Notes: generated by a model not told the origin, from the letters alone. A DNA stretch of 64,000 nucleotides from Blastocatellia bacterium (GCA_963832205.1 CAWHTK010000005.1:44318-108317), one strand, 5' to 3'. Counted from the stretch's first letter, positions 20,395 to 63,479 are shown. Numbers and translations are program-made.

Positions 20395-20422
20395 TGCAAC
20401 CTGTAACCTGTAACCTGTAACC
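20395..20422. repeat. CCTGTAA x3 tandem heptamer / CTGTAACCTGT(A/C)ACC motif upstream of rplC
   Basis: gcaacctgtaacctgtaacctgtaaccc; related to the identical 16-mers at 35373-35388 and 63427-63442. Confidence 0.6.
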
Positions 20423-20433
20423 CGAGAGTTATT

Positions 20434-21063
20434 ATGGTCAACGGAATAATTGGTAAGAAGCTCGGAATGACGCAGATTTTTGCGTCGGACGGAACGGTTA
20501 CGCCGGTGACGGTCCTAAAGGCCGGCCCCTGCGTGGTCGTTCAAAAGAAGACCGTCAACAGTGATGGCTATGACGCGGTCCAGTTGGGGTTGGTCGAAGA
20601 GAAGCCGCCCCGCCGCGTTAATAAACCTACCGAAGGTCACTTCAAGCGCGCGGGCGTGCCGCCCACGCGCGTGCTGCGCGAGATCCGTGTAGATACGGGC
20701 GAGGAGGCGACCAATGTCGGCGATAAGATACTCGTCGATATGTTTAACGCCAATGACCTCGTGGAGATTGTCGGCAAGTCGAAAGGGCGCGGTTTCGCGG
20801 GGTTCATCAAACGCCACGGGTTTGCGGGCGGGCGCGCCACGCACGGTTCGATGTTTCACCGCGCGCCCGGAGGCATCGGCGCATCGGCATATCCGTCCCG
20901 CGTCTATAAAGGCACGCGCATGGCGGGCCACATGGGCGTCGAGCGAAAGACCATAAAGAACCTTCGCGTCGTAGCGGTCAACATCGAAAACAATCTGCTG
21001 ATGGTGCGCGGGGCGGTGCCCGGCCCGAACGGCGCATACGTGTTGATTAAGAAGGCGCAATAG
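20434..21063 (+). CDS. rplC: 50S ribosomal protein L3
   Basis: [37 protein letters not shown]... Confidence 0.95.
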
Positions 21064-21180
21064 TGAGAAGTCAGATGACCGAAGCCAGAAGACAGAATGG
21101 AAAAGGAAGTCGGCGCAAAGCGCTTACGCCTTTATTCTGACTCCTGACTTCCGACTCCTGACTCCTGATGGAGCAGAAAC
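21064..21180. repeat. Imperfect hairpin / tandem GACTCCTGA element (GAAGTCAGGAGTCAGAAT family) between rplC and rplD
   Basis: gaagtcag...acagaat ... attctgactcctgacttccgactcctgactcctga; shares the GTCAGGAGTCAGAAT motif with 37801-37884. Confidence 0.55.
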
Positions 21181-21810
21181 ATGCCTGTTGTGAAGGTAAA
21201 GAACCTTAAGAACGAAGAGGTGGGCGAGCTGGAGCTGTCGGACGAAGTGTTCGGCGCGCCGCTCAACAAGTCGCTCATTTACGAAGCGGTCAAGAGCTAC
21301 CTGGCCAATCAGCGCGCCGGCACATCGGCCACCAAGACGCGCGGCGACACGAGCGGGTCGGGCAAGAAGCTCTGGAAGCAGAAGGGCACCGGGCGGGCGC
21401 GCATAGCGAGCCTTCGAAGCCCGCTGTGGAAGGGCGGCGGAAACGTCCACGGCCCTCAGCCGCGCGACTGGTCCTACCGCATACCGAAAAAGATGCGTCG
21501 CGGGGCGATCCGGTCGGTGCTCTCCGAGCGGCTGCGCGAGGGCGGCATCATTATCGTCGAAAACTTCGAGCTTCAGTCGCACAAGACCAAGGACTTTGTC
21601 GCGGCGCTGGCGGGTCTCGGGTTGAGCAGGCGCACGCTGATAGTCGATTCGCTCGATAACAACAACCTGGCGTTGTCGTCGCGCAACCTGCCCAACGTTA
21701 CTTACATTGCGCCGACCGACGTGAACATATACAACCTGCTCACGCACGAGCAGGTTGCATTTACGCGCGAGGCGGCGGCCCAGCTCGAAAAGCAGCTCGG
21801 CAGTAAATAG
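21181..21810 (+). CDS. rplD: 50S ribosomal protein L4
   Basis: [48 protein letters not shown]... Confidence 0.95.
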
Positions 21811-21820
21811 GAGGCGGCTA

Positions 21821-22150
21821 ATGCAGACTATCTGGGATGTAATAAAAGGGCCGGTCATAACAGAGAAGGCGCTCACGATGAAGGACGAGCCCGAGTCGAT
21901 GGGTCGCGCCGGCAACGAGCGGCAGATACTTACGCTCAAAGTTGACGCCCGCGCGAGCAAGCCCGAGATCAAGCGCGCCGTCGAGCAGATCTTCGGCGTG
22001 AAGGTTGACGGGGTGCGAGTCGCCAACTTCCGCGGCAAGATGAAGCGCATACCGACGCGCCGCGAGACGGGCCGCAGACCGGGCTGGAAGAAAGCCTACG
22101 TCACGCTTAAGGCGGGCGAGAGGCCGATTATGTACGAAGACGCAATCTGA
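21821..22150 (+). CDS. rplW: 50S ribosomal protein L23
   Basis: MQTIWDVIKGPVITEKALTMKDE...; GGAGG 6 nt upstream; the longer ORF 21755-22150 overlaps rplD and is not the real start. Confidence 0.9.
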   Translation: MQTIWDVIKGPVITEKALTMKDEPESMGRAGNERQILTLKVDARASKPEIKRAVEQIFGVKVDGVRVANFRGKMKRIPTRRETGRRPGWKKAYVTLKAGERPIMYEDAI

Positions 22151-22241
22151 TTTTTGATTGCGGATTTTAGATTCTGGATTGGAGCGCGACCTCCTTTCCT
22201 TAATCCAAAATCCAAAATCTAAAATCCAAAATGGAAAAGCG
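22151..22241. repeat. Hairpin with AATCC/CCAAAAT pentamer-heptamer tandem repeats between rplW and rplB
   Basis: GGATTTTAGATTCTGGATTGG ... CCAAAATCCAAAATCTAAAATCCAAAATGG; GGATTTTAGATT pairs with AATCTAAAATCC. Confidence 0.6.
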
Positions 22242-23066
22242 ATGGGAATCAGAAAGCTAACACCTACGTCACCCGCGCGGCGCTACCAGACCTATCTCAC
22301 CCGCGAAGAGATAACGACGGACACGCCATACGAGCCGCTGCTTGCGCCCAAGAAGCGTATATCCGGGCGCAACCATCACGGCCACATAACGGTTCGCCGG
22401 CGCGGCGGCGGCGCAAAGCGCCATTACCGCATAATAGATTTCAAGCGCGACAAGACCGGCATTCCGGCCAAGGTAGAGACGATTGAGTATGACCCGAACC
22501 GCTCGGCCCATATCGCGCTGCTCAGCTACCTCGACGGGGAGAAGCGTTATATCATCGCGCCGGTCGGGCTCAAGGTTGGACAGTCTATAATCTCGGGCCC
22601 GGAGTCCGACATCATCCCCGGAAACGCCTTGCCGCTTCGCTTCATACCCCTGGGCACGACAATTCATAACATCGAATTGAGACCGGGCAAGGGGGCGCAG
22701 ATAGTCCGCGCGGCGGGCGGCGCGGCGCAGCTTGTGGCCAAGGAAGGCGACTGGGCGCAGCTCCGGCTGCCGAGCGGCGAAATCCGCCGCGTCAATATCG
22801 AGTGCTACGCCACGGTGGGCCAGATCGGAAACATAGAGCACAGCAACGTGAGCCTGGGCAAGGCCGGGCGCACGCGCTGGCTGGGCCGCCGCCCGAAAGT
22901 GCGCGGCGTGGCGATGAACCCGGTTGACCATCCGCATGGCGGCGGCGAGGGCAAGACTTCCGGGGGGCGAAACCCTGTCACTCCCTGGGGCCAGCCGACG
23001 CGCGGCTATAAGACTCGTAACAACAAGCGCACCGACAAGTTCATCGTGCGCAGAGCTAAAAAGTAA
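22242..23066 (+). CDS. rplB: 50S ribosomal protein L2
   Basis: [17 protein letters not shown]... [14 protein letters not shown]; true start inside ORF 22158-23066. Confidence 0.95.
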
Positions 23067-23138
23067 AGACTGAGCCGTGAGGGTCGGGCGAGAAACATCT
23101 CCCGCTCGGCTCCACAGTACTCAGCACTCGGAAGGGTT

Positions 23139-23426
23139 ATGGCAAGATCAATTAGAAAAGGGCCGTTCATTGATGAACACCTGATGAATAAGATATCGCG
23201 GATGAATTCGGCGAACGAGAAGCGGGTCGAAAAGACCTGGTCGCGCCGCTCGACGATTGTGCCCGAGATGGTGGGTCATACCATCGCCGTGCATAACGGC
23301 AAGAAGTTCATCCCGGTTTACGTTCAGGAGAACATGGTCGGGCACAAGCTCGGGGAGTTCTCGCCCACGCGGACTTTCAAGGGGCACCCCGAGAAGAGCG
23401 ACAAGACCGTAAAGAAAGGGAAGTAA
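23139..23426 (+). CDS. rpsS: 30S ribosomal protein S19
   Basis: [19 protein letters not shown]... Confidence 0.95.
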
Positions 23427-23429
23427 GCG

Positions 23430-23792
23430 ATGAAGGCACGCGCAGTCGCAAAATACATCAAGGGCTCGCCGCAGAAGGCCCGGCTGGTCATTGACCTCAT
23501 TCGCGGTCGCAACGTCAACGAGGCGCTTGCGATGCTGCGCGCGACCAACAAGCGCGCGGCGGGCCCGATTGAGATAACGCTACGGTCGGCCATTGCCAAC
23601 GCGACGCAGAAGGCCGATCAGCTTAACGTCACGATCGATGTTGACCGGCTCAAGGTATCTATGGCCGCCGTCAACCTCGGTCCGACCAAGTGGCGCCGCC
23701 GCGTCAGGCCCGCGCCGATGGGCCGCGCCTACCGCGAGCGAAGGTGGCAAAGCCATATCACCATCGAGGTGGAAACGGAAAAGGAAGATTAA
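23430..23792 (+). CDS. rplV: 50S ribosomal protein L22
   Basis: [36 protein letters not shown]... Confidence 0.95.
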
Positions 23793-23793
23793 T

Positions 23794-24450
23794 ATGGGTC
23801 AGAAAGTACATCCGTATGGCTTCAGGCTGGGGTTCAATCGCGGGTGGCATTCGAACTGGATTGCCAAGCGCGATTACGCGGACCTCTTGCACGAGGACCT
23901 GAAGCTCAAGAAGGAGTTGAAGAGGCGCTTTGCCGGCGCGGGCGTCTCCAACATCGACGTCGAGCGGGCGGCTAACAAGCTCAAGATCATCATCCACACT
24001 TCGCGGCCCGGCATCATCATCGGTCGCAAGGGCGCGGAGATCGACAAGCTGAAGCAAGAGATCAAAGAGCGCACGGGCCGCGAGGTCTATGTCAACATCC
24101 AGGAGATACATAAGCCGGAGCTGAACGCGCAGTTGCAGGCCGAACAGATCGCGCAGCAACTCGAAAAGCGAATCGCTTTCCGCCGCGCCATGCGACGAGC
24201 GGTCGAGAACGCGCAGCGGTTCGGCGCGCAGGGCATCAAAGTGCGCGTCTCCGGGCGGTTGAACGGGGCTGAGATCGCGCGCAGCGAATGGTACCTGCAG
24301 GGGCGGTTGCCGCTTCACACGCTCAGGGCCGACATCGATTACGGGTTCGCGCAGGCTTATACGACCTTCGGTGTCATCGGCGTCAAGGTCTGGATATACC
24401 GCGGCGACGAGTTGAGCATCCGCCGCGCAGCCCCAAGGCGACCTCAATAG
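23794..24450 (+). CDS. rpsC: 30S ribosomal protein S3
   Basis: [24 protein letters not shown]... (KH domain plus S3 C-terminal domain); start inside ORF 23593-24450. Confidence 0.95.
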
Positions 24451-24546
24451 CAGTGGTCTGGGGGCAGCGGTCAGTAGGCGGCGAGGAGGACTTCTCTTCG
24501 CGAAGAACTGACCGGCCGCCGCCGGCCACCGAGCAGTGGTGAAATT

Positions 24547-24987
24547 ATGGCTGAATATAAGATTCCAAAGCGAATGAAGTACCGCAAACAGCAGCGGGGC
24601 CGCATGAGCGGCGTCGCCACTCGGGGGGCGGAAATATCGTTTGGCGAGTATGGGCTCAAGGCGCTCGAGCCCGCCTGGATCACCGGCAAGCAGATCGAGG
24701 CTTCGCGCGTCGCCATGACTCGCTTCATCAAGCGCGGCGGCAAGATTTGGATAAGAGTCTTCCCGGATAAGCCGATCACCAAAAAGCCGGCGGAAACCCG
24801 CATGGGCAAGGGCAAGGGCGCGCCGGAAGGCTGGGTCGCGGTCGTCAAGCCCGGCAGGGTGCTGTTTGAGATGGAAGGCGTCAACGAAAAGACGGCGGCC
24901 GAAGCAATGAGGCTCGCCGCGCAGAAGTTGCCGATCAAGACCAAGTTCATCACGCGCAAGGATCAGGAGTCAGGAGGGTTGGTATGA
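24547..24987 (+). CDS. rplP: 50S ribosomal protein L16
   Basis: [39 protein letters not shown]... Confidence 0.95.
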
Positions 24988-25187
24988 AGGCCGATGAGAT
25001 GAGAGAGCTTTCGGATGAAGACCTGCGCGGCAGGGTGAACGAGCTGAAAGAGCAGATTTTTCGCATGCGGTTCAAGCTGTCGCTCGGGAACACCGACGTA
25101 GTAAAACAGTTGCGCGAATCGCGCAAGGACCTGGCGCGGGTCAAGACCCTGATGCGCGAGCGCGAGATTAACGCGGCGCAAAGCTAA
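24984..25187 (+). CDS. rpmC: 50S ribosomal protein L29
   Basis: [36 protein letters not shown]...; ATGA overlap with the rplP stop. Confidence 0.9.
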
Positions 25188-25211
25188 GGCCAGGGCATAC
25201 GCTTTTGAAGG

Positions 25212-25622: not shown

Positions 25623-25694
25623 GTAGCGGGGGACAGGTCATAGGCGGCAGGGGAGCGATTGTCTCACCCCGCCCCTGTTCGCTGGAGGACAGTT

Positions 25695-26063: not shown

Positions 26064-26093
26064 GGCCGGTGGTCGGAAGTCAGACGAGGGATT

Positions 26094-26426: not shown

Positions 26427-26497
26427 CGACGTGGGGCGAATGGTTCTGGCTACTGAAGGCAGCTCCCCACGGCGCATCAGTAGAAAGGGAAGACGGA

Positions 26498-27043: not shown

Positions 27044-27106
27044 TTGTCAGGGGTCAGCGGCCGGTGACGAGATTACCGCTCGCCGGCCCTCGAACACAGA
27101 GGAACG

Positions 27107-27391: not shown

Positions 27392-27475
27392 AATCGAGGA
27401 CTGAGCGATGAGGGGCGGAGGACTGAGTGAGTCGAAGTCGATGCCCGGTCCCTCGGTCCCGTACTAGGAGAAGCA
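27392..27475. repeat. Hairpin element of the GGACTGAGCGATGAGGG family after the rpsN stop
   Basis: gaggactgagcgatgaggggcggaggactgagtgag...; same motif at 28468, 33968, 23068 and reverse-complemented at 49481-49500. Confidence 0.55.
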
Positions 27476-27868: not shown

Positions 27869-27907
27869 AGTCGCGGCACTCTAAACGTGCCGCCCGGAGT
27901 TGATTCG

Positions 27908-28462: not shown

Positions 28463-28585
28463 CGGGACTGAGCGAAGGGGAGCGGAGCGCTCATCTGTAA
28501 GCGTCCGACTCGGTCCCCGGTTCTCAACTAAGAGGGTTGCTGAAGTGAGGCTACTGGCCCAATCAGCGATCGAAGGTGAAACGAG

Positions 28586-28945: not shown

Positions 28946-28949
28946 GATT

Positions 28950-29453: not shown

Positions 29454-29519
29454 CTCGAAGGACGAATTTGAGGTTTCAAATCTCAGATCGATCCTTCTGA
29501 ACGCGGAGGAGTCTTAACA

Positions 29520-29720: not shown

Positions 29721-29732
29721 ATGTCGGGTGTC

Positions 29733-29785
29733 GGACGCCGCTTTGAGATTTGACTCTTTGGTTGAAATCTCAAAGCGGCGTCCGA
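29733..29785. repeat. Perfect 20-bp inverted repeat hairpin between rpmD and rplO
   Basis: CGGACGCCGCTTTGAGATTT (29733-29752) / loop gactctttggttg / AAATCTCAAAGCGGCGTCCG (29766-29785). Confidence 0.8.
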
Positions 29786-29806
29786 GTCCGCCATTCGGAG
29801 TCAATC

Positions 29807-31870: not shown

Positions 31871-31879
31871 CGAGGGCTT

Positions 31880-33370: not shown

Positions 33371-33469
33371 CGCGCGGTTGCGCCATGAGAGATCGAATGT
33401 TAAAATAACTGTTTCTTGTGCGCGAGATTTTCTTATCCTATCGCTTATGTCACGGGAAGGAAGAGTGAG

Positions 33470-33985: not shown

Positions 33986-34055
33986 GACCTGAGCGATGAG
34001 GGCCGAGTAAAAGGATAAACGCTCGGTCCTTCGTTCTTCAGCACTCGGAAGGATT
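33986..34055. repeat. Hairpin element (GACCTGAGCGATGAGGGCCGAG family) plus conserved leader CAGCACTCGGAAGGATTATGGC upstream of rpsK
   Basis: cctgagcgatgagggccgag...ctcggtcc hairpin; the 3' part tcagcactcggaagg(a)ttatggcaa is near-identical to the sequence upstream of rpsS (23112-23145). Confidence 0.55.
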
Positions 34056-34463: not shown

Positions 34464-34664
34464 CTATTCTTTTCGGGCCCAGGTAGATGACGCACCGCCT
34501 CGGCCCGGTCTCATTAAAGGCTCAAGCGTAATCTTGCGCTTTAAAGGAAGAAGGGCATTCAATCGATGATAGCGGAGAGCAATCCGCGGATCGCATGCCT
34601 GTAAACTTTTGCTTGCCGCACATCAACTTTTGATCTGCGGCGATAGTAGATGGAGGGATAAGAG
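34464..34664 (+). promoter_or_regulatory. 200-nt untranslated leader upstream of rpsD (possible S4 autoregulatory leader)
   Basis: Unusually long spacer inside the alpha operon with no ORF; by analogy with S4-regulated leaders. Confidence 0.3.
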
Positions 34665-35303: not shown

Positions 35304-35405
35304 CCGTTGAAGGTTCCAAGGAGCAGGTTACAGGGCGCGGGGACCGTATGCTCCCCACTCTGTCATCTGTAACCTGTCACCTCTAACCTTATTTGAGAGG
35401 AAGCA

Positions 35406-36416
<1,011 letters not shown>

Positions 36417-36503
36417 AAAAAATACCGGGTCGCGGGCATTGCCTGATGAGTCAACTCATCGAGCAATATTCGCGACCCGACCTTGATTTATAAGAGGCTT
36501 GAT

Positions 36504-37318: not shown

Positions 37319-37801
37319 ATGAATTTGAAAGAACTCAAAGAACTGATCGAGCTTATCAGTGAGAAAGGGTTTGCGGAGTTCGAGATCGAGCGCCAGGGGT
37401 TTCGCTTGCGAATCTGCCGCTTCCAGGAGGCGGCGCCACAACTTTTTCAGCCTGCGCCCGCCCCGGTCATAATCTCTCAGGCGATACCCGCCGGCGCGCC
37501 CGTCATGCACGAGCCCGGAAAACAAGAGACGCCGCCACCCGCACAGCCTGAGCCCGCGCCACAACTCCACGTCATCAAGTCGCCCATCGTAGGGACGTTT
37601 TATCGCTCGCCTTCGCCGTCAAGCCCGCCATTCGTAAACGTCGGCGACCGCATCGAGCCGGAAACGGTCGTCTGTATCATCGAAGCGATGAAGCTTATGA
37701 ACGAGATACAGGCCGAGATAAGCGGCGTGATCGCGGAAATCTACCCCCAGAACGGGCAGGCGGTCGAGTATGGCCAGCCGCTGTTCGGGATAAAAACCTA
37801 G
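37319..37801 (+). CDS. accB: Biotin carboxyl carrier protein of acetyl-CoA carboxylase
   Basis: Pro/Ala-rich linker then biotinyl domain [20 protein letters not shown]. Confidence 0.9.
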
Positions 37802-37884
37802 AAGTCAGGAGTCAGAATAAAAGAAAAAGCGTTTCGCGCTGACTTCATTTTCATTCTGTCTTCTGAATTCTGACTCCTGACTCC
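37801..37884. repeat. 18-bp inverted repeat GAAGTCAGGAGTCAGAAT / ATTCTGACTCCTGACTCC hairpin between accB and accC
   Basis: 17/18 complementary arms at 37801-37818 and 37867-37884; same motif family as 21064-21180. Confidence 0.75.
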
Positions 37885-37896
37885 CGACCATATCAT

Positions 37897-39289
37897 ATGT
37901 TCAAGAAGATTCTCATAGCGAACCGCGGGGAGATAGCGACACGCATAATATGGGCCTGCAAAGAGCTGGGCATAAAGACCGTCGCGATTCACTCGGAAGC
38001 GGACCGGGACTCCCTGCATGTGCGCTTCGCCGACGAGGCGATCTGCATCGGGCCGCCCCCGTCGTCTAAGAGTTACCTGAACATCCCCTCGGTCATCTCG
38101 GCCGCCGAAATCAGCAATGTCGATGCCATTCACCCCGGCTACGGATTTCTGGCCGAAAATGCTTACTTCGCCGAGGTGTGCGAAGCATGCAATATAAAAT
38201 TCATTGGCCCAACCCCCGACAGCATTCGCCTGATGGGCGATAAGGCCCAGGCGCGCGCCGCGATGAAGCAGGCAGGGGTGCCGATCACGCCCGGGTTCGA
38301 CGGCATAATCGAGGACGAAGATCAGGCGGTTGGAGATAGCCGAACAGATCGGCTATCCCGTCATCATAAAGGCTTCGGCCGGGGGCGGCGGGCGCGGCAT
38401 GCGCATAGTCCGCGATCGCGGAGAATTGCTCGCCGATTTACCGGCGGCCCAGCACGAGGCGCAGCTCGCCTTCAATAACCCCGCGGTCTACATAGAAAAA
38501 TATATCGAGGTCGCGCGCCATATAGAGATACAGGTCCTCGGCGATGTGCACGGAAACGTCGTGCATCTTGGCGAGCGCGAATGCTCGATACAGCGCCGCC
38601 ACCAGAAGCTGATCGAAGAGTCGCCTTCGCCCGCGCTTACGTCGGAACTCAGACAGCAGATGGGCGAGGTGGCCATGCGAGCCTGCCGCGAGATAGGCTA
38701 CGTCAGCGCCGGCACGATGGAATTCTTGCTTGACGAGAACTCGAACTTTTACTTCATGGAGATGAACACTCGCATACAGGTCGAGCACCCGGTGACCGAG
38801 ATGGTCACCAACACCGACCTCGTGCGCGAGCAGATACTGGTCGCGGCGGGCGAGCGATTGGAGTTCGGCCAGGAGGATATAGTCTTTAGCGGCCACGCCA
38901 TCGAGTGCCGCATCAATGCCGAATCGCCTCTGACCTACGCCCCGTCGCCGGGGTTAATCACCGCGATGAATCTCCCCGGGGGGCCGGGCGTGCGAGTCGA
39001 TACAGCGGCCTACCCCGGCTGGTTCGTGCCGCCGCATTACGATTCGTTAATCGCGAAGCTCATAGTTCACCATCGCACACGCGAGATGGCGATAGCGCGT
39101 ATGAAGCGCGCGCTTGAGGCTTTCATCGTCGAGGGCATCGAGACATCAGTCCAATTGCACCAGCGCATCCTCTCCGACCCTGATTTCGTGGCAGGACGCC
39201 TGTCAACAAAATTCATGGAGCGATTTATCGCCCCTCGACCCGCCGGCAAGGGGCGGGCGCAAGAGGCGTCACTGGGCGTCCCCGAATAA
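37897..39289 (+). CDS. accC: Biotin carboxylase; frame broken by 1-nt indel near 38320-38330
   Basis: ORF 37897-38478 = [42 protein letters not shown]... to ...IEDEDQAV, then out of frame. ORF 38330-39289 = [26 protein letters not shown]... Removing one g from gcggttggagatagcc gives AVEIAEQ and a contiguous ~450-aa AccC. Confidence 0.9.
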
Positions 39290-39295: not shown

Positions 39296-39916
39296 ATGCT
39301 CGCCTCACTCCCCAGGCTTTATCCAATAACCGACACCCGGCAATCGGGACTCTCGCACGCGGAGCAGGTCCGGAGGCTGGCGGCGTCGGGCGCGACCCTT
39401 GTGCAGTTGCGCGAAAAGCATGCCTCGCCGCGAGAGTTTTACGCCGAAGCGCTCAGCGCCGTTCAAGCGGCAAGGAGTCTGGGCGTGCAGATAATAATAA
39501 ACGACCGGGTCAACATCGCCATCGCCGTCAAAGCAGATGGCGTTCACCTCGGGCAGGAGGATCTGCCCCCGAGTAAGGCGCGGTTGCTGCTGGGCGACAG
39601 CGCGATCATAGGCTACTCCACTCACAGCTTGAAACAGGCCATGGAAGCCAGTTTCGAGCCGGTCGATTATGTAGCCATCGGTCCCGTGTTTCAGACCGGT
39701 ACCAAAGAGAACCCCGACCCGGTGGTCGGGCTCGAGGGGTTGGCCGAGGTAAGACCGCGAGTATCTGTGCCGCTTGTCGCAATCGGTGGCATCACCCTTG
39801 ACCGCGCGCGCGCTGTGATCGAGGCCGGGGCCGATAGCCTCGCCGTAATATCCGACCTCTATCGTACGAGAGATATCGAAGGCCGGGTGCGCGCTTATTT
39901 GCAAGAGCTCGCCTGA
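39296..39916 (+). CDS. thiE: Thiamine-phosphate synthase
   Basis: ...RLYPITDTRQ...GATLVQLREKH...IIINDRVNIAIAVKADGVHLGQEDL... Confidence 0.8.
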   Translation: MLASLPRLYPITDTRQSGLSHAEQVRRLAASGATLVQLREKHASPREFYAEALSAVQAARSLGVQIIINDRVNIAIAVKADGVHLGQEDLPPSKARLLLGDSAIIGYSTHSLKQAMEASFEPVDYVAIGPVFQTGTKENPDPVVGLEGLAEVRPRVSVPLVAIGGITLDRARAVIEAGADSLAVISDLYRTRDIEGRVRAYLQELA

Positions 39917-39950
39917 GATTATCCTGGCCGCCGCCGCCGCCATAATCATA

Positions 39951-39994
39951 AAAAGCGAAGGGCCGGAACACTGTTCCGGCCCTTCGCTTTTCTC
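39951..39994. terminator. Bidirectional intrinsic terminator between convergent thiE and the DUF1573 gene
   Basis: AAAAGCGAAGGGCCGGAACA c TGTTCCGGCCCTTCGCTTTTCTC: 16-bp perfect stem, A-tract 5' and T-tract 3'. Confidence 0.8.
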
Positions 39995-40027: not shown

Positions 40028-41134
40028 TTAGTTGAAAGTCGCCTTGATCGGGACTTCGAGCACAGGCGTTTCAGGGTCGTTCGTTTCAATGCGAACCTTG
40101 CCCTGATGCTCGCCCGCTTTTATCTTCGACTGGTCCAGCTTGAGTTTTATCATATAGACTTCGCCTTCTTTTTCGGTGACAAGCTCAAGCTGAAGGAAGG
40201 GAAGCGTCGATTTGTACGAGTTGATCTTTAGCCCGCCTTTGCGCACCTTGCGGACGTAAATTGCCGGCCAGTTGATCGAAGAGAGATCGGACGAAGCGGG
40301 CAGCGTAGGCATAATGATCGAAGTCGGCATCGCGAATATGCGCGGGAAGATCGTGGCCTCAAGCTCGACGGTCATCTCGGGCTGCTTCGGGCTGTCGGTT
40401 ATTAGTCGCACCGATTGGCGGTACTGTCCCGGCTTGAGCGCGGAGTTAGTCGCGACATGCAGCTCATACCTCTTGCCGTCCTGAATGGGGTGAAGCGTAG
40501 CCGTAAATTTAGTCCCGCCGGGTATGACCTTTTTTATGCGGACTGGCTTTGCTTCGGGGTTGTAGAGGTAAAGCCGGCTCGCCGAGCTGGTGCCCGCCAG
40601 GACGCTTGTCACCCAGCGGTTGACCGGCTCTATGACAAAGGGTCCGACCTGTTTTACAGGGACCATCGGGGCCGATGTGTGAGTCGGCGTCGGCGCGGGC
40701 TCCATCTTAAACCGGGCGCGAAGTACGAGGCCGAAGCTGGCCTGTTGCGGATCGTTGGTCGTCACGCTGGCTGACTTGACTATCTCTCCGACGTAGCCCT
40801 GCGTATTGTCTATTCTCAGTTCGATCTTTCCCTCCTTACCAGGAGGCACGACTTTGTCGTAGTCGCCTTTTGTGCATCCTCAGCCAGGGCTTACGTTTTT
40901 GATAAGCAGATCGCCTTTGCCCATGTTCTTCAGCTTGAAGACGTGAACCAGGGGTACGCCCGCTTTTACTTCGCCAAAGTCATGACTGAGAGAGTCGATA
41001 ACCATTTTCGGAGCCGGCGGCGCATCAGCCGGCGATTGCCCCGGCTCTAGCTGCGAACGAGTGGTTTGCGCCAGGGCCGCAACCGCCAGGAAGAGCGCGA
41101 GGATCGGCGCTGAAATATGCCTGATAAATCTCAT
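40028..41134 (-). CDS. Secreted DUF1573-family protein with in-frame TGA (40880-40882) at the first Cys of the conserved CGC motif (selenocysteine candidate or premature stop)
   Basis: Signal peptide MRFIRHISAPILALFLAVAALAQT. DUF1573-like HDFGEVKAGVPLVHVFKLKNMGKGDLLIKNVSPG-TGA-GCTKGDYDKVVPPGKEGKIELRIDNT. ORFs 40880-41134 and 40028-40849 are in the same frame, separated only by the TGA. Confidence 0.6.
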
Positions 41135-56373: not shown

Positions 56374-56451
56374 GTGAACGCTCCCCTGGCTCTTTAACGA
56401 AGGAACGTTCGAGGAGGTTCGATTTTGTATGATTTCGTATTTCCGGCGCGC

Positions 56452-58056: not shown

Positions 58057-58911
58057 TTGCAACGACAAATAGCGCAGATAGGCAAGGAAGCCGGTGCCGA
58101 AGCAGTAGCGGCCGCCTTCTACGATTACGAGACCGAAACATCCTGGAGTTATCACGGCGACCGCTGGTTTCATGCCGCAAGTACCATAAAGGTCGCAGTG
58201 CTGGCCTCGGTATTCCGCGCCGTCAACGACGGAGTTTTTCAATTAAGCTCGCGCGTGCATGTCCGCAATCGCTTTTTGAGCGTGGTCAACGGCGAGCCCT
58301 ATCGCATCCCGACGACGCGCGACGCCAACTCAAAAGTCCACGCTTCGCTCGGCCGCACGATGAACGTGCAGGAGCTCGCCTTTCATATGATCGTCACCAG
58401 CAGCAACCTAGCGACGAACCTGCTGCTCGATTTAGTGGGCGTCGAGCGGGCCGGGCGTCTCGCCCAGGAGATAAAGCCGGACGGCATAAAGCTCAAGCGC
58501 GGCGTCGAAGACGACAAGGCTTTTGAAGCGGGCATAAACAACACCGTCACCGCCAACGGCCTCCTCAGCCTCTTCCGCGCGATACAGGATGAGCGGGGCT
58601 TTACGCACGATTCCTCGCAAAAGATGCTGAGCATACTCAACCAGCAGGAGTTCAACGGCGGCATCCCGGCCGGGCTCCCCGCGCGCGTGCGCGACGTGGC
58701 CCGCATCGCGCACAAGACGGGGGAGATTTCGACCGTCGCGCACGACGCAGGTGTCGTCTTGATACCTAAACGAAAGCCCTACGTCGTCGCCATCCTCACC
58801 GAATGGGGCGAGGAGACCAGTTCGGGGAGGCAGGAGACTCTGGCCGGAATATCGAAGGCCATATACACGGAACTGATCGAACAGGAACACGCGGGGGCTC
58901 GCAATGAGTAG
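58057..58911 (+). CDS. Class A beta-lactamase-like serine hydrolase
   Basis: SxxK (STIKV), SDN-like (SSNLATN), KTG (AHKTGEIS); 8-nt overlap with the next gene. Confidence 0.7.
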   Translation: MQRQIAQIGKEAGAEAVAAAFYDYETETSWSYHGDRWFHAASTIKVAVLASVFRAVNDGVFQLSSRVHVRNRFLSVVNGEPYRIPTTRDANSKVHASLGRTMNVQELAFHMIVTSSNLATNLLLDLVGVERAGRLAQEIKPDGIKLKRGVEDDKAFEAGINNTVTANGLLSLFRAIQDERGFTHDSSQKMLSILNQQEFNGGIPAGLPARVRDVARIAHKTGEISTVAHDAGVVLIPKRKPYVVAILTEWGEETSSGRQETLAGISKAIYTELIEQEHAGARNE

Positions 58912-59506
58912 CGACCGCGCGCTCCCGTTGAGGATCGTCGATGGACTGACCCTGGACGAAAAGTACCGCGCCGTGTTGCGCCCCGGCGAGATACTGGAGG
59001 ACCGGCAGGGCCGCGCGCGAAGGCTCCCGCGATTCTTCTACGAGGTGGATTCGAGGCAGACGGCGCAGGAGACCGAGCTTGCGCCGCACTTCGCGCTCTG
59101 GGAGTTCATCGACACGGATGTGCGCGAGGCCGAGGTGCTCCGGAGGTTTCCCCGCTACATACCCTGCGCGGTGACGCTTCTGGCGCTCCACCTTGAGCTG
59201 TTCCGGCAAGAGGTGAATACGATCGTGCGCATCGCCGCAAACGGGGGATACCGCTCGCCCGGCCACGCAATTTCAAGGTATGCCTCCCCCCATAACTGGG
59301 GCACGGCGGCGAACATTTATCAGATAGGCGACGAGTACCTGGACGAGCAGGAGAAGATCGAGCGGTTCAATTCAATCGCGGCAAGGGCGCTGCCCGGCGT
59401 ATGGACGCGGCCCTATGGGCACAACGTCGGCTATGCGGACGACCACATCCATCTGGATATTGGCTATGTCACGGTGGTCCCGCGCGACGCGCCGGGCGAG
59501 GAGTAG
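58904..59506 (+). CDS. Peptidase M15-like (VanY/DUF882-type Zn D,D- or L,D-peptidase fold)
   Basis: GYRSPGHAISRYASPHNWGTAANI ... DDHIHLD resembles the SxHxxGxAxD / DxxH zinc site of M15 peptidases (Asp replaced by Asn). Confidence 0.5.
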   Translation: MSSDRALPLRIVDGLTLDEKYRAVLRPGEILEDRQGRARRLPRFFYEVDSRQTAQETELAPHFALWEFIDTDVREAEVLRRFPRYIPCAVTLLALHLELFRQEVNTIVRIAANGGYRSPGHAISRYASPHNWGTAANIYQIGDEYLDEQEKIERFNSIAARALPGVWTRPYGHNVGYADDHIHLDIGYVTVVPRDAPGEE

Positions 59507-59525
59507 CGACCGCGGGCGTTTGTGA

Positions 59526-60812
59526 GTGCGAGCACAGGGAAGTGGGTTGGCAGTGATCGACAAAGTAAAACAGTCGCCTCTTGGCGATAAATCATCACCC
59601 GCGGTCGAGCGCGCGGCTCTGTTGGAGCTTGCCGCGATCGGGATGGAGTCGGAGTTTTCGCTCGTCATAAACGGCGAGCCGGTGACGCCGGAAGAGGCAT
59701 TCGGCGACCCGCGTGCTTTTATGAGCAGACCCTTGATGCACAGGCAGGGGACTTCTTATCACCTCCCGACGGGCGGCGCGGTCTATTTTGATACCGGGGT
59801 CATAGAGGTGGCGACCCCGGTCATCGAGATTGAGCGCGGGTGCGCGGCGCGCGCCGGGAGGTCGCTTTGGGAGGCGATTCTCTTCGTCCGGGCCGAGCTG
59901 GACGAATGGGAGCGCCGCACCGGAAACGACGCCCGGCTCGTAGGGTTCAGCGCCCATTACAATATCTCATTCGAGATACCGGCGGCCCGGCAGGGCGCGA
60001 ACCGGACGATTGAAAAGCTCGCGCTGTTGCTCTCCTACATACTGCCTATCCCTGTGATGCTGCTTGCGACCAACCGCCGCTCGACCGGCGTGGGCGTGCG
60101 CCCGCGCGGCGACCGCGTGGAGATAACCGTGGACTTCACGCCAAGCTCGTCGCTTATGATAGCGACCGCCACGCTCATCACCGGCATCGTGCGCGACGTG
60201 ATGAGATGGCCCTCGTTCGAGTTAGCCGCGCTCAAAGAGAAGGGCGTGCCGGTCATTCGCGGCTACCGCCCCATGCCTCATACGACGCGGAAGGGATGGC
60301 TCGGCCGCTTTGACTGCTACCCGGCCAACCCCTTTTCCTCGTGCGTTGACGATTCGCGCTGGGAGCTTGACGGCGGCTGCGATAATGAGCGAGCGAGCGA
60401 GCACTCGGTCGCGAGCCTCCGCGAGATAGCGGAGAGTATATTCAAAAGGTTCTGGCGGCCCATCGCCCGGATGTCAGACCCGTTCACCTTCAAGCTGATA
60501 GAATCGGTCATCAGCGGCCGCGCGCCTTCGCTGCTCGATCTGGACGACCGCCCGCCTGAATACGAGGACGTCGGCAGGCTCTGCGCGTGGGACAACCTCT
60601 TCCCCGAAAGCGTGCTGGCGCGCTCTCGCTACGAGCGGGTGCTCATGCGCGCAATATCGGGCCGCAAGCTCATACTCGGCGGCGCGCGTTACAGGCCGGT
60701 GGGGATGCGCGGGTGGTCCGAAGTCGTATTCCGGCGCGACGAAGACGGAACACGCCACGTCTTTTCGATTGACGTTCTCGTTAAGTACCTGGATAAATGG
60801 GAACGTTGCTGA
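59526..60812 (+). CDS. Hypothetical protein, possibly GCS2/YbdK-like carboxylate-amine ligase (amidoligase)
   Basis: N-terminal AIGMESEFSLVINGEPVT resembles the G-[IV]-E-x-E-[FM] start of GCS2 ligases; weak, unconfirmed. Confidence 0.3.
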   Translation: MRAQGSGLAVIDKVKQSPLGDKSSPAVERAALLELAAIGMESEFSLVINGEPVTPEEAFGDPRAFMSRPLMHRQGTSYHLPTGGAVYFDTGVIEVATPVIEIERGCAARAGRSLWEAILFVRAELDEWERRTGNDARLVGFSAHYNISFEIPAARQGANRTIEKLALLLSYILPIPVMLLATNRRSTGVGVRPRGDRVEITVDFTPSSSLMIATATLITGIVRDVMRWPSFELAALKEKGVPVIRGYRPMPHTTRKGWLGRFDCYPANPFSSCVDDSRWELDGGCDNERASEHSVASLREIAESIFKRFWRPIARMSDPFTFKLIESVISGRAPSLLDLDDRPPEYEDVGRLCAWDNLFPESVLARSRYERVLMRAISGRKLILGGARYRPVGMRGWSEVVFRRDEDGTRHVFSIDVLVKYLDKWERC

Positions 60813-60819
60813 TGCGGCG

Positions 60820-61254
60820 ATGATACTGAATAACCAAAAAAGGCGGCCGACAGACGTCGCGCTGCCCGACCATGCCATAGAGATGCTCGGCTCGTATTTT
60901 CCGGGGCTCGATTTGAAGAGGGTCTGCATCCGCGAGGGCGTCCCGTGGTATGTGCCTCTGAGCGCATCGGCATATACGGACAGGGCAGTGATCTACTTCA
61001 AGCCCGGCACGTATGACCCCAATTCGGCGGCCGGGCTGGCACACATAGCGCACGAGCTTGCGCACACGGCGCAGTACACCGAGCACGGCAAATGGCGCTT
61101 CAGGGCGCTTTATATCGGCTCCTGGCTCCGCAACCTTTTCAGGCACCGCTCGTTCGTGCCCGCCTATCGGGAGAATAGATTCGAGGAAGAGGCGCGCCGC
61201 CTGGCGGAGGTCGTCTTTAATGACCTGTGTAAAAAGTTCGGGGGCCAGTATTAA
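60820..61254 (+). CDS. DUF4157-family putative Zn-metallopeptidase (HExxH)
   Basis: LPDHAIEMLGSYFPGLDLKRVCIREG...YTDRAVIYFKPGTYDPNSAAGLAHIAHELAHTAQY matches the DUF4157 pattern ending in lAHELtHvvQ; start MILNNQKRRP just after upstream stop. Confidence 0.7.
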   Translation: MILNNQKRRPTDVALPDHAIEMLGSYFPGLDLKRVCIREGVPWYVPLSASAYTDRAVIYFKPGTYDPNSAAGLAHIAHELAHTAQYTEHGKWRFRALYIGSWLRNLFRHRSFVPAYRENRFEEEARRLAEVVFNDLCKKFGGQY

Positions 61255-61274
61255 CTTTATGGAGGATTCGATCA

Positions 61275-61769
61275 ATGACGCGACGAAAGTTTATAAAGGG
61301 GACGGGCGCGACCGCCGTCGGCGCGGCAGTTGTCACGAAACCGGCCCTGGGAGCCGCTTCCAGGGCAAGCAGCTCGCAGTCTAAGGGAAAGGCGTCGAAA
61401 AAAATCATCTCGACCGACCGCGCTCCCAAACCCATCGGCCCTTACTCGCAAGCCGTGGTAGCGGGCAATACGGTCTATGTCGCGGGGCAGGGGCCTTTCG
61501 ACCCCGTCACGCGCAAGCTCATAGAAGGGGGTTTCGAACAACACGCCGTGCAGACTTTTGAAAACGTGAAGGCGATACTCGAAGGGGCCGGGGCGACGCT
61601 CGGCGACGTGGTCAAGGTAAACGTATACCTGGCGGACCTTACGAACTTCGCGAAGATGAACGAAATCTACACGCGTTACTTCAAGTCCGACTTTCCGGTT
61701 CGCACGACCGTCGGCACCGCGCTTCTCGGCGGGATGTTAATCGAAGTCGACTGCATCGCGGCGATTTAA
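61275..61769 (+). CDS. RidA/YjgF/L-PSP family enamine/imine deaminase with twin-arginine (Tat) signal peptide
   Basis: MTRRKFIKGTGATAVGAAVVTKPALGAAS; RidA core APKPIGPYSQAVVAGNTVYVAGQ... Confidence 0.8.
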   Translation: MTRRKFIKGTGATAVGAAVVTKPALGAASRASSSQSKGKASKKIISTDRAPKPIGPYSQAVVAGNTVYVAGQGPFDPVTRKLIEGGFEQHAVQTFENVKAILEGAGATLGDVVKVNVYLADLTNFAKMNEIYTRYFKSDFPVRTTVGTALLGGMLIEVDCIAAI

Positions 61770-62284
61770 TGTGGATTATTCGGTGGGCGAAGTCGCTAAG
61801 CAAATCAAACGAATTTGAGATACCCATACGAAACTTCGGTAAGGTCGATGGCTGGCTCTACCGCGGGGCGCTTCCGGACCGGCGAGGTTATGAATCGCTC
61901 CGCGACAAGCTCGGCATCCAGAGGGTTGTCAGCCTGATAGAGCACCAGACGGAGCTTGATCGCGACCTCGCGCTCGGCTCGGGCGTAAAGGAGTGGGTGC
62001 ATATACCATTCTCCGACCGCCACGCGCCCGACCCTTTGAAGGTGAAAGAGTGGCTCCAGGTCATCGCGACCGCAAAGACCGGAGGATTGATCTACACGCA
62101 CTGCCGCGGAGGGCGTCACCGGACAGGTTTTCTGGTCGCGGTCTATCGCGTGCTGGAGTACGGGTGGAGCAAGCAGCAGGCGTATGAAGAGATGAAAAGA
62201 TACGGCTGGTATGGGGCGCTGGGGCACCGGCCTATCCTCGAATGGTTCTTGAATGATTTTGACCCGGAGAGTTTTCGCCGTTAG
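61769..62284 (+). CDS. Dual-specificity / tyrosine protein phosphatase (CX5R)
   Basis: HCRGGRHRTGFLVAVY P-loop; 1-nt overlap (TAATG) with the RidA gene. Confidence 0.75.
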   Translation: MWIIRWAKSLSKSNEFEIPIRNFGKVDGWLYRGALPDRRGYESLRDKLGIQRVVSLIEHQTELDRDLALGSGVKEWVHIPFSDRHAPDPLKVKEWLQVIATAKTGGLIYTHCRGGRHRTGFLVAVYRVLEYGWSKQQAYEEMKRYGWYGALGHRPILEWFLNDFDPESFRR

Positions 62285-62336
62285 AAGTCCGGGGCGAAGT
62301 TGTAGCAATAGGCCACTCGCGATAGTAGAATGATGG

Positions 62337-62600
62337 GTGAGTATGATCAGGACCGTGCGCGTAGGCGACATAGTAGGCTTCAGGACATTTTCGGGCGCGA
62401 TACGATACGGCGAAGTCGTGGAGTTGCTGATGCGCGGCAGCGACGGGCGCGCGACGCGCAAGGATGAAGTCAGCGTGCGGCTCAAACCCGACGGGCATGT
62501 TGTAATGGTCCAGCGGTGGCGGCTGGCCGAGCGGTATGACGGCAAAAAGATTGCGCGGGCGGCGCAACCGGCTGAGCCGCTCGAACGTAAGGGCAAGTGA
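62337..62600 (+). CDS. Small hypothetical protein (87 aa)
   Basis: ORF only; MSMIRTVRVGDIVGFRTFSGAIRYGEVVELL... Confidence 0.3.
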   Translation: MSMIRTVRVGDIVGFRTFSGAIRYGEVVELLMRGSDGRATRKDEVSVRLKPDGHVVMVQRWRLAERYDGKKIARAAQPAEPLERKGK

Positions 62601-62616
62601 GGAGAGGTAAAAGATA

Positions 62617-63369
62617 TTGATCGGCAGGCGACTTACACTGCTTATAATTCTGACGCTCGGGCTTACCTGCGCAAACATTCATGCGCAGAAGAAGAAGCCT
62701 CCGCGCGAATCTCTTGCCACGCTTGAAAAGCGCGAATCCGAAGCGCGGGGCGAGCTGATCAAGGCCGCCGAGGAGTATAAGAAATCGCTTGAGCGACTGC
62801 TCGTGCTTCAAGAGCGCGATGTCAAGGAGGCTCAGGAATTATTCGAGCGGCGCAAGGCGCTTTTCGAGCAGAAGATCATATCGAAGCGCGACCTTGACGC
62901 GGGCGAGCAAATACTCGCGACGGCCCGCACAAAAGCTGAAGTGACGCGCAAGGAGATGAAAGGGACCGACACGCTCGTGGCCGAGGTCAAGGCCGAGGAG
63001 CAGCTTGCCAGAATGCCGAAGCCGCGAGTAAACGCGTACCAGGCGACGGCCGCGCTCATCCGTTACAGCGGCGCGGGCCGGTGGTCGATTAGCGACGCCT
63101 CAAAAGTACAATCTTTCTTCGCCTCTCGCTTCGGCCGCTCGCTGCCGGTGAGCGCATACGGCCAGACATCGGTTCATGACCGGCTGGGTTTTGATCATCG
63201 CAACTCGGTCGACGTGGCGGTTCATCCCGACAGCGCCGAAGGGCAGGCGCTAATCGCTTATCTTCGCAGCATGGGAATACCGTTTCTGGCGTTCCGTCAC
63301 GCCATACCGGGCTCGGCCACCGGGGCTCACATACACATCGGCCGTCCGTCCCACAGGATCGCCCGATAA
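62617..63369 (+). CDS. Secreted coiled-coil protein with C-terminal domain weakly resembling M15/VanY peptidase Zn site
   Basis: Signal peptide MIGRRLTLLIILTLGLTCANIHAQ; charged helical region; C-terminal SVHDRLGFDHRNSVDVAV ... GAHIHIG. Confidence 0.4.
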   Translation: MIGRRLTLLIILTLGLTCANIHAQKKKPPRESLATLEKRESEARGELIKAAEEYKKSLERLLVLQERDVKEAQELFERRKALFEQKIISKRDLDAGEQILATARTKAEVTRKEMKGTDTLVAEVKAEEQLARMPKPRVNAYQATAALIRYSGAGRWSISDASKVQSFFASRFGRSLPVSAYGQTSVHDRLGFDHRNSVDVAVHPDSAEGQALIAYLRSMGIPFLAFRHAIPGSATGAHIHIGRPSHRIAR

Positions 63370-63479
63370 AGCGGAGCGCCCGAGAGATAAAGATGCGCCG
63401 CGCGCTTGCGCCCGCTCGCCCCTCGACTGTAACCTGTCACCTACTCACGCTGCGTCATGCATAGAAAGTGTGAGTCGTC

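Follow-up and report, generated by a model that had tools for sequence, protein, structure and literature searches.

Heptanucleotide-repeat hairpins between operon genes of a Blastocatellia bacterium keep their position and form while their sequence is replaced

Introduction

Tandem repeats of seven-nucleotide units have been noted in bacteria for decades, as short tandemly repeated repetitive (STRR) sequences, as long simple-sequence repeats (LSSRs) and as TAACTGA repeats, and their origin and role are not agreed. The heptanucleotide STRR sequences of cyanobacteria were reportedly described by Mazel et al. in 1990, and Elhai et al. are said to have found, in 2008, small dispersed repeats within the heptamer arrays of Nostoc. 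To our knowledge, STRR sequences have not been reported as systematic stop-to-start intercistronic hairpins in ribosomal-protein operons. Intercistronic stem-loops as such are familiar: the repetitive extragenic palindromes (REPs) and bacterial interspersed mosaic elements (BIMEs) of enterobacteria, as well as the RNase III hairpins of the T7 early genes, stabilise upstream segments or punctuate processing. Here we analyse a stretch of 64,000 nucleotides (hereafter, the window) from a Blastocatellia bacterium (GCA_963832205.1 CAWHTK010000005.1:44318-108317), in which hairpins built of tandem heptamers lie between the genes of several operons. A first-pass annotation of the window had singled out an identical 16-mer, CTGTAACCTGTCACCT, upstream of rpoA and of an S-adenosylmethionine decarboxylase (AdoMetDC) gene, along with a related CCTGTAA array upstream of rplC, and had proposed that these were a protein or RNA operator, a direct-repeat binding site, or a mini-repeat element.

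In marine Beggiatoaceae, TAACTGA repeats are intergenic, run in the forward direction, and lie a few nucleotides upstream of start codons, including those of the genes for L3, S4 and fusA (MacGregor 2015, PMC4679880). They are over-represented at translation genes, often without a canonical Shine-Dalgarno (SD) sequence, and a post-transcriptional role has been proposed for them; the genome has 169 direct sets and one inverted set (PMC4679880). More generally, heptameric simple-sequence repeats (SSRs) are over-represented in some bacteria (PMC4692102), and among long SSRs with units of 5-11 nt the heptamers are an over-represented class, according to Mrazek et al. 2007 as cited in PMC4679880 and PMC4692102. 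The GGGAATC repeats of Xanthomonas have now and then been noted in inverted arrangements (PMC4692102).

Results

Heptamer hairpins between operon genes

Each of the motifs upstream of rplC and rpoA forms the C-rich 3' arm of a hairpin between two cistrons, and both arms of such a hairpin are tandem arrays of 7-nt units; the 5' arm of each array's hairpin is an imperfect inverse array. Having mapped all genes from rpsL to accC and inspected each junction in the window, we find such a hairpin in most gaps of at least 40 nt in the rpoBC, str, S10, spc, alpha and accBC clusters. From the preceding stop codon to the hairpin there are 0-2 nt, and from the hairpin, which stops directly upstream of the SD sequence, to the next start codon about 12-14 nt. 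The junctions with tandem arrays are as follows, where z compares the fold with those of shuffled sequences.

20332-20423, + strand: rpsJ-rplC hairpin; 5' arm AGGCGAC AGGGCTT AGGCGAC AGG (about 20332-20360), apical stem-loop at about 20364-20382, 3' arm of 4.3 CCTGCAA/CCTGTAA units (20393-20423); fold -45.7 kcal/mol, z -3.5
35319-35391, + strand: rpsD-rpoA hairpin; 5' arm GGAGCAGGTTACAGGGCG, apical GGGGA...TCCCC stem, 3' arm CTGTCAT CTGTAAC CTGTCAC CTCTAAC CT; fold -35 kcal/mol, z -1.5
21064-21180, + strand: rplC-rplD hairpin; 5' arm of (A)GAAGTCAG type, 3' arm of 4.6 CTGACTC units (21137-21168); z -4.0
22151-22242, + strand: rplW-rplB hairpin; 5' arm GATTTTA/GATTCTG, 3' arm of 4.4 AATCCAA units (22202-22232); z -3.2
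37802-37896, + strand: accB-accC hairpin; AGTCAGG AGTCAGA ... CTGACTC CTGACTC; z -5.7
669-761, + strand: rpoB-rpoC hairpin, flanking genes identified by Pfam; TCCGAAA TCCGAAA ... CGGACCC CGGACTC, array at 718-736; fold -51.8 kcal/mol, z -5.5

Tandem Repeats Finder (TRF) reports period-7 arrays at 20393, 21137, 22202, 35367, 37870 and 718, with copy numbers that include 4.3, 3.3, 4.6 and 4.4. All of these arrays lie in gaps between open reading frames (ORFs), and their units include CCTGTAA, CTGACTC, AATCCAA and CGGACCC. The gaps that contain arrays fold at -33 to -52 kcal/mol, with z between -3.2 and -5.7 in five of them, and often form helices of 4-5 bp every 7 nt. The accC ATG has no SD sequence before it, and the accB-accC array abuts that ATG directly.

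At other junctions the hairpins, recognised from the folds of the spacers between 15989 and 36503, show a heptad periodicity that is weaker or has decayed:

15989-16058, + strand: rpsL-rpsG
16533-16615, + strand: rpsG-fusA
23067-23138, + strand: rplB-rpsS
24451-24546, + strand: rpsC-rplP
25623-25694, + strand: rpsQ-rplN
27044-27106, + strand: rplE-rpsN
27392-27475, + strand: rpsN-rpsH
28463-28585, + strand: rplF-rplR
29454-29519, + strand: rpsE-rpmD
29721-29806, + strand: rpmD-rplO
33986-34055, + strand: rpsM-rpsK
36417-36503, + strand: rpoA-rplQ

Spacer-by-spacer inspection reveals remaining heptad periodicity in many junction hairpins of the window, and 74% of the 23 window spacers have a fold z below -2. 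There are at least ten different hairpin sequences or units within 22 kb, of which the CTGACTC type alone is present twice. Gaps of 30 nt or less between the operon genes of the window contain no hairpins, and neither the co-directional gaps outside these operons nor the str promoter region contains one of this kind.

The hairpins are neither intrinsic terminators nor promoters of consensus type. Terminator-like structures are as numerous in the window as in shuffled sequence, none falls on the stems of the main junction hairpins, and no T run follows the arrays; likewise, a promoter scan finds no promoter at any junction, and its total for the window equals that of shuffles. Rfam 15 gives 0 matches at the gathering threshold over the whole window, and a scan of 15-38 kb returned only a spurious mir-335 (E 0.065).

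What exceeds chance

There are indeed two exact copies of CTGTAACCTGTCACCT in the window, both on the + strand. The second, at 63427-63442, is where the first-pass annotation had placed it, 71 nt upstream of the AdoMetDC start. The first, however, lies at 35367-35382 rather than 35373-35388, a shift of 6 nt, and its 3' end is 23 nt, not 18 nt, short of the rpoA ATG (35406); it is the heptamer array as a whole that extends to about 35391, 14 nt before that ATG. Similarly, the array before rplC, cctgtaacctgtaacctgtaaccc, is present, but it occupies 20400-20423 and is separated from the rplC ATG (20434) by 10 nt rather than 14 nt. TRF, which includes the CCTGCAA unit, delimits this array as 20393-20422, with period 7 and 4.3 copies.

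The same annotation held that a 16-nt identity was beyond chance. Shuffling the window yields exact 16-mer pairs at a rate, per 64 kb, of about 0.9 for direct and 1.0 for inverted pairs, and several unrelated exact pairs occur in the real window as well (for example, 20658/48088 and 38527/43880). Because shuffles yield about one exact pair per 64 kb, a lone identity of this length is weak evidence. Chance is exceeded by the near matches to CTGTAACCTGTCACCT with at most 3 mismatches, taken as a family (7 observed against 0.14 expected, a number that 0 of 100 shuffles attain), and by the period-7 structure. The window also holds a second exact 16-mer pair within heptamer arrays, overlooked earlier: ATTCTGACTCCTGACT, at 21134 and 37867. 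We conclude that the identity of the rpoA and AdoMetDC copies reflects a common heptamer vocabulary plus chance, and not a joint operator.

The rplC-rplD and accB-accC arrays, both of which contain ATTCTGACTCCTGACT, share a 21-nt inverted identity (21131-21151; 37801-37821 / 37867-37882), and the loops of the two spacers are alike (AAAAG..GCG...CGC). To judge by these resemblances, the two spacers may be paralogous copies.

Place and form in related genomes

RpoA places the host, whose GC content is 59%, in Blastocatellia, Acidobacteriota. Searching metagenomes with L3 yielded 80 loci, at L3 identities of 74-89%, and in most of them the rpsJ-rplC gap contains a two-array heptamer hairpin whose unit is wholly different between loci. 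Units at this one junction include CCTGTAA, CATCCTT, CTCAGCA/CTCAGGA, GACTACG, TTGTCAC, TTCATCA, ACGCATC, CACCAAC, AATCCAA and GATCCTC, and in one case the unit is a 9-mer. Heptamer-free loci, such as L162 and L172, retain a small GC hairpin after rpsJ. The AATCCAA unit, which in our window sits between rplW and rplB, is the rpsJ-rplC unit in L185 and L195. L201 is a metagenome-assembled genome (MAG) from Blastocatellia for which genes have been called; between L14 and accC, most of its longer junctions have a heptamer hairpin, and about ten different units are used among them. The rpsD-rpoA gap of relatives carries GGTCAGT/ACTGACC arrays, or hairpins that are weakly periodic or non-periodic, and is followed in all of them by a conserved ribosome-binding site, TTTGAGAGGAAGCAATG.

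The junctions were also analysed as a pool of 199 spacers. An ungapped inverted-repeat finder overlooked hairpins with periodic internal loops, and we therefore used a gapped fold-back alignment, by which 85 of the 199 spacers exceed the threshold. Against shuffles, the pooled spacers have a median z of -2.3 to -3.6, with 54-74% below -2. A period-7 stretch (at least 12 of 14 positions matching) is found in 62/199 spacers; other periods from 4 to 11 are found in 0-2, and coding controls give 0. Among periodic arms, 102/108 have period 7. The median hairpin begins 2 nt from the stop codon and ends 14 nt from the ATG. The 97 arrays fall into at least 27 unit clusters, several of which recur across junctions and genomes. 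Thus, position and architecture are conserved across relatives and the unit sequence is not; there are no fewer than 27 unit families, and CTGTAAC/CTGTCAC is just one among them.

The first-pass annotation had named conservation in relatives as a check on its motif, and absence from all of them as grounds for rejecting it. The AdoMetDC leader copy proves to be conserved, but the rpsJ-rplC and rpsD-rpoA copies are not; most relatives lack the motif at these latter positions, although some relatives, and members of other phyla, do have it as a common heptamer unit.

Turnover of the hairpins

The replacement of one hairpin by another can be followed among very close relatives. Ten contigs (L207-L216) encode an identical RpoA protein, with rpoA nucleotide identities of 89-100%, and nonetheless carry two unrelated accB-accC hairpins, built of GTAGTCC or of AAAATTG units. 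For example, L210 and L209 have rpoA genes that are 97.8% identical and nearly the same first 80 nt of accC, whereas their accB-accC spacers share nothing. The breakpoints are sharp and coincide with the accB end and the accC ATG, and contigs with similar flanks do not consistently have the same type of hairpin. The two alleles also differ in the accB stop codon and in the length of the AccB C-terminus, and accC lacks an SD sequence. Likewise, the CCTGTAA type found between rpsJ and rplC in our window is shared by L145-147, L150, L154 and L159 (L3 identity 82-83%), but not by the closest L3 relatives (86-89%).

Turnover also occurs within a hairpin. In L127, L128, L133 and L134, orthologous rplC-rplD hairpins of the AGAAGTCAG/CTGACTCCT type differ in copy number and in unit variants, and some arms have each been homogenised to a variant of their own, leaving one mismatch per heptad. 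We infer that the arrays behave as slippage-prone simple-sequence repeats that are subject, from time to time, to whole-hairpin replacement or recombination: mismatches would recur once per heptad because arrays homogenise by slippage within each arm, and the sharp breakpoints at ORF ends suggest that entire hairpins have been exchanged or replaced.

Polarity of the arms

The two arms are not interchangeable. Of 85 hairpins, 73 have the G-rich arm on the 5' side, the G content being 0.34 in the 5' arm and 0.19 in the 3' arm, and around CTGTAACCTGTCACCT arrays across phyla, among the matches listed, the G-rich inverted partner lies upstream in 29 cases and downstream in 1. Since a palindrome reads alike on both strands, strand-biased mutation cannot give rise to such an asymmetry; G-rich-first polarity therefore implies position-dependent selection. 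SD-like 4-mers are frequent in 5' arms and rare in 3' arms; a comparison of the 5' arms with the complement of the 3' arms reveals no significant depletion of such 4-mers (14 versus 10 hairpins).

The CCTGTAA vocabulary in other phyla

A scan of 596 Gb of genomes for CTGTAACCTGTCACCT returned at least 120 loci, a number that says little in itself, given a chance expectation of about 280 by our own estimate. Among the matches listed, 49 are from Nostocales and 26 from Acidobacteriota, and others come from the Candidate Phyla Radiation (CPR), Chloroflexota, Gemmatimonadota and Planctomycetota. Most of these listed loci sit within longer period-7 arrays, clearly so in 36/49 from Nostocales. The Acidobacteriota loci often lie 0-32 nt before long co-oriented ORFs, an observation that is qualitative, as orientation by ORFs is noisy at high GC and in frames altered by arrays. 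CCTGTAA/CCTGTCA is, then, a widespread heptamer word.

In a Candidatus Paceibacterota MAG (L096, 7060-7190), a GGTTACA/CTGTAAC heptamer hairpin lies between tuf and rpsJ in the S10 operon, from which it appears that junction hairpins may extend well past the Acidobacteriota. In Anabaena and Dolichospermum (L025, L045, L111), a constant insert of about 14-17 nt, CCCGTGGCGTAGCA(CC), repeatedly breaks the CCTGTAA/CCTGTCA arrays, and it resembles the small dispersed repeats reportedly present in Nostoc. Units similar to TGACCAA can be discerned by eye in L143 and L152.

The AdoMetDC leader

The third site is of a different kind.

63386-63513, + strand: AdoMetDC leader; CTGTAACCTGTCACCT copy at 63427-63442; TTGCGC at 63403-63408, 18 nt, TAACCT at 63430-63435; downstream hairpin CTCACGCTG...AGTGTGAG; CGTCGTGT block

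The gene is identified by Pfam AdoMet_dc (PF02675), and we take ATG 63514 as its start because a 100%-identical database protein has 134 aa. Here the fold (z +0.2) leaves the heptamers unpaired, there is no heptamer hairpin, and Rfam gives 0 matches on 63300-63560 at E up to 10. The leader (about 110 nt) is also present in L219, L220, L222, L224 and L225. In relatives with 79-87% protein identity it is 0.86-0.91 identical, and so conserved at least as well as the coding sequence. In relatives at 69% protein identity only cTTG(CGC/TCA/CAT), 18 nt and TAA(C/T)CT persist, while the bases between them vary; the pattern TTGCGC/TTGTCA/TTGCAT-18-TAACCT/TAATCT is thus kept over the whole range of 69-100% protein identity. 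A heptad periodicity, NNACCTG repeated 3-4 times, surrounds it in all relatives.

Because this leader evolves slowly and with promoter-like conserved blocks, we class it apart from the rplC and rpoA sites. By their sequence and spacing the blocks look like a -35/-10 promoter, and it is reasonable to read this site as cis-regulatory, most likely as a promoter or leader; the conserved leader could comprise a promoter and a regulatory 5' untranslated region. The promoter may have arisen from a heptamer array or may merely overlap one.

Other features of the window

Two further gaps in the operons deserve mention. The rpsK-rpsD gap is unusually long and highly structured, with 201 nt here (34464-34664) and 320 nt in L201 (8975-9294, including a GTTTCTA heptamer hairpin), and has no Rfam match; it may be an S4 autoregulatory leader. 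The map-rpmJ gap (33371-33469; L201 7829-7940) has no heptamer hairpin and contains a conserved GAATGTTAAAATA...GTTTCTTGTGC.CGAGATTTTCTT, which can be read by eye as TTGCGC/TTGCAA-17-TAAAAT with an upstream TG; this segment is a likely candidate for an internal promoter of the alpha operon.

The remaining observations concern the window at large. Two essential genes appear to be split, rpoC over ORFs 762-1916 and 1861-4998 and accC over 37897-38478 and 38330-39289; in relatives accC is a single ORF of 453-486 aa. Both frameshifts are probably assembly indels and not biology. At 39951-39991 a perfect 19-bp palindrome, with its G-rich arm first, lies between an A run and a T run just past the 3' end of the minus-strand ORF 39305-39949; the next minus-strand ORF is 40028-40849, and accC ends at 39289, about 660 nt away. 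In its sequence this palindrome has the form of a bidirectional intrinsic terminator. Repeats unrelated to the heptamers are 30- and 60-nt tandem periods at 7616-8190, in the minus-strand ORF 6901-9156; 16-17-mers that occur three times at 12855-13362; and a 20-mer duplicated in tuf (19471-19640).

Discussion

Our reading of these results is that the rplC and rpoA motifs belong to a class of heptanucleotide simple-sequence-repeat hairpins situated between operon genes, whose architecture is kept and whose sequence is not, and that the AdoMetDC site is separate from them. We assign this reading as a whole a probability of about 0.72.

Several results weigh against it. The rpsD-rpoA hairpin itself is barely more stable than shuffles; in some relatives the hairpins at this junction are non-periodic, and one (L217) is C-rich-first. 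A divergent intergenic region of L201 also contains a heptamer hairpin, which means that the class is not strictly intercistronic, and the concentration in highly expressed operons is seen in one window and a few loci. Independent homogenisation of the arms sometimes comes at the cost of complementarity, for example in L128 and L134. If an RNA helix were selected, an excess of wobble pairs would be expected; the stems have none (G.T+T.G 111, fewer than A.C+C.A 175, counts that are non-independent, as mismatches repeat in each heptad and some loci are related), and so provide no direct sign of selection for pairing. RNAalifold, applied to the alignable GTAGTCC hairpins, finds covariation in 2/21 pairs, with a positive covariation term and an ambiguous register, which amounts to no usable covariation. 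Finally, the hexamers of the putative AdoMetDC promoter are below the consensus threshold of the promoter scan. It is from geometry, stability and polarity that we infer a structural role of the RNA.

If such a role exists, translational coupling, protection of the message and avoidance of Rho are the functions that these features suggest. The arrays would expand, contract and homogenise through replication slippage within each arm, and entire hairpins would be swapped or replaced between genomes. Being transcribed as parts of polycistronic mRNAs, they would place an insert of about 90 nt at a cistron junction, which might be tolerated, or favoured, only when it folds upon itself. The base of the helix would bring the stop codon beside the next ribosome-binding site, preserving the coupling of termination to reinitiation, and a terminating ribosome would melt the outer 12-15 bp, freeing an A/C-rich tract beside the SD sequence. 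The hairpin could also protect or punctuate the message, as a barrier to exonucleases or possibly as a substrate of RNase III. With the G-rich arm transcribed first, the C-rich arm would never present an unstructured Rho-loading tract, and the same order would keep G runs that resemble SD sequences at a distance from the genuine ribosome-binding site.

One could generalise further, to a punctuation system for polycistronic mRNAs in Blastocatellia and perhaps in Nostocales, some CPR and Chloroflexota. In such a system heptad hairpins, obligatorily G-rich-first, would bridge each stop to the next start as devices of coupling or shunting, or of RNase III or Rho insulation, or in both capacities. 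They would be renewed continually by a mechanism, dedicated or strongly biased, that generates heptamers, and would be exchanged between strains as cassettes through recombination. We regard this generalisation as speculative and rather doubtful. If it were true, however, it would supply both a function and a mechanism for heptanucleotide repeats, unexplained since 1990.

Among other explanations, the most serious rival, though we still think it unlikely, is that the hairpins are a neutral or selfish by-product: lineage-specific slippage of heptamers, with template switching at quasi-palindromes, would inflate tolerant spacers that have no selected role. The extremely fast turnover of units fits this explanation, as do the once-per-heptad mismatches, which mark homogenisation within each arm, the lack of a G.U excess, and the fact that arrays end exactly at functional limits, the stop codon and the SD sequence. 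The excess of heptamer SSRs has, moreover, been ascribed to polymerase slippage (Mrazek 2007, as cited in PMC4679880 and PMC4692102). Against this, strand-symmetric DNA processes could not produce the polarity reported above, either in the pooled hairpins or around CTGTAACCTGTCACCT; the heptamer-free relatives L162 and L172 still keep a small hairpin after rpsJ; and hairpins appear concentrated in the rpoBC, ribosomal-protein and acc operons, other co-directional gaps being without them.

A good deal less probable is the view that the A/C-rich 3' array matters and not the hairpin, the array serving as a single-stranded translational enhancer, a standby site, or a binding site for S1, Csp or a CsrA-like protein. 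Arrays do stop just upstream of the SD sequence or ATG, accC with its abutting array lacks an SD sequence, the 3' arms are A/C-rich and unable to self-pair, and the Beggiatoaceae repeats stand at the same kinds of genes (L3, S4, fusA; PMC4679880). Here, however, almost every array has a complement upstream with which it pairs, unlike the almost exclusively direct sets counted in PMC4679880, and the diversity of units speaks against one sequence-specific binder.

It is improbable, too, that the hairpins are mobile palindromes of the REP/REPIN type, or miniature inverted-repeat transposable elements, spread by a transposase such as RAYT (REP-associated tyrosine transposase). Their form and intergenic location would suit such elements, as would cassette-like replacement with sharp breakpoints and the recurrence of CTGACTC (rplC-rplD, accB-accC) and AATCCAA (rplW-rplB here, rpsJ-rplC in L195). 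But at least ten units in 22 kb leave no single conserved sequence per genome, the arms are variable-copy tandem arrays rather than fixed-length copies, terminal inverted repeats and target duplications are not evident, and a search of the 64-kb window, not an exhaustive one, found no transposase.

A sequence-specific operator, or direct-repeat site with CTGTAACC/CTGTCACC half-sites, through which one regulator would co-control rplC, rpoA and the AdoMetDC gene, is very improbable. Two exact copies and one related array, all on the sense strand upstream of genes, had suggested it, and relatives retain the motif upstream of their AdoMetDC genes. At the orthologous rplC and rpoA gaps, however, relatives carry unrelated heptamers within the same hairpin architecture; at least six other junctions of the window have other units, CTGACTC, AATCCAA and CGGACCC arrays among them; chance alone would yield one exact 16-mer pair in 64 kb; and the AdoMetDC copy, outside any hairpin, evolves quite differently. 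Because the unit differs between loci, and genomes with identical RpoA carry unrelated accB-accC hairpins, an operator of this kind is largely ruled out for rplC and rpoA. Of the possibilities first put forward, a mini-repeat element came nearest, the rplC and rpoA sites being tandem heptanucleotide repeats.

Equally improbable are internal promoters, with the TAACCT hexamers that recur in the CCTGTAA array acting as -10-like elements for rplC and rpoA. The sequence upstream of rplC does allow a reading as TTGGCC-16-TAACCT, and TTGCGC-18-TAACCT is conserved at the AdoMetDC site, but the scan finds no promoter at the junctions and a total equal to shuffles, and the relatives' units at the same junctions have no -10-like hexamer. 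CRISPR-like arrays, small peptide ORFs within the arrays, and phase-variation switches (the genes being essential) have no supporting feature.

Under the reading that we prefer, of heptamer hairpins whose architecture outlasts their sequence, this lineage offers an unusually clean natural experiment, since hundreds of metagenomic relatives allow one and the same junction to be compared. The hairpins keep their position, their form, their 7-nt period and their polarity while the sequence changes fully, so that architecture can be separated from sequence, and predictions on translational coupling, Rho avoidance and mRNA processing follow. Annotators of such genomes should be warned not to take exact repeats that precede essential genes for regulon motifs. 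The conserved and unannotated leader or promoter of the AdoMetDC gene is also worth flagging.

How, then, do these hairpins compare with known systems? The arrays have at least three tandem 7-nt copies, are intergenic and of several units, and vary in copy number and sequence among close relatives, as heptanucleotide SSRs and STRR-like repeats do. Their closest known relatives are above all the TAACTGA repeats of Beggiatoaceae, beside STRR sequences, heptanucleotide LSSRs and the Xanthomonas GGGAATC repeats. With the TAACTGA repeats they share start-proximal forward heptamers inside ribosomal-protein operons (the median distance from hairpin to ATG is 14 nt here, and all window arrays are operon-internal); they differ in that one dominant, unpaired heptamer is found there, and dozens of units here, nearly always arranged as inverted pairs and not conserved in sequence between relatives. 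With STRR sequences they have in common tandem 7-nt intergenic units of several families per genome, and CTGTAACCTGTCACCT itself occurs within long Nostocales heptamer arrays, some of which have an upstream G-rich inverted partner; STRR sequences, however, often run to tens of copies and are AT-richer, whereas the arrays here have 3-5 units per arm, are paired, and belong to a host of 59% GC. The long SSRs and GGGAATC repeats are likewise intergenic heptamers that stay at conserved positions while differing in length and sequence from one close relative to another, but they are G-rich candidates for G-quadruplexes, without a systematic hairpin or operon-junction pattern.

If our functional interpretation is right, the working of these hairpins would be similar to that of the REP/BIME and T7 hairpins. 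REPs and BIMEs, however, form one conserved, RAYT-linked family per genome, and with at least ten hairpin sequences in 22 kb the present hairpins do not belong to the REPs; the RNase III sites of T7 are conserved substrates and, like the REPs, are neither tandem heptamers nor subject to such sequence turnover. For Acidobacteria or Blastocatellia we found no description of heptamer repeats in a literature search that mostly lacked subscription journals, so that its silence is not proof. Tandem heptamers themselves are known; the present case differs in that the units are many rather than one, that they form systematic stop-to-start hairpins of fixed polarity, and that their sequence is replaced between very close relatives.

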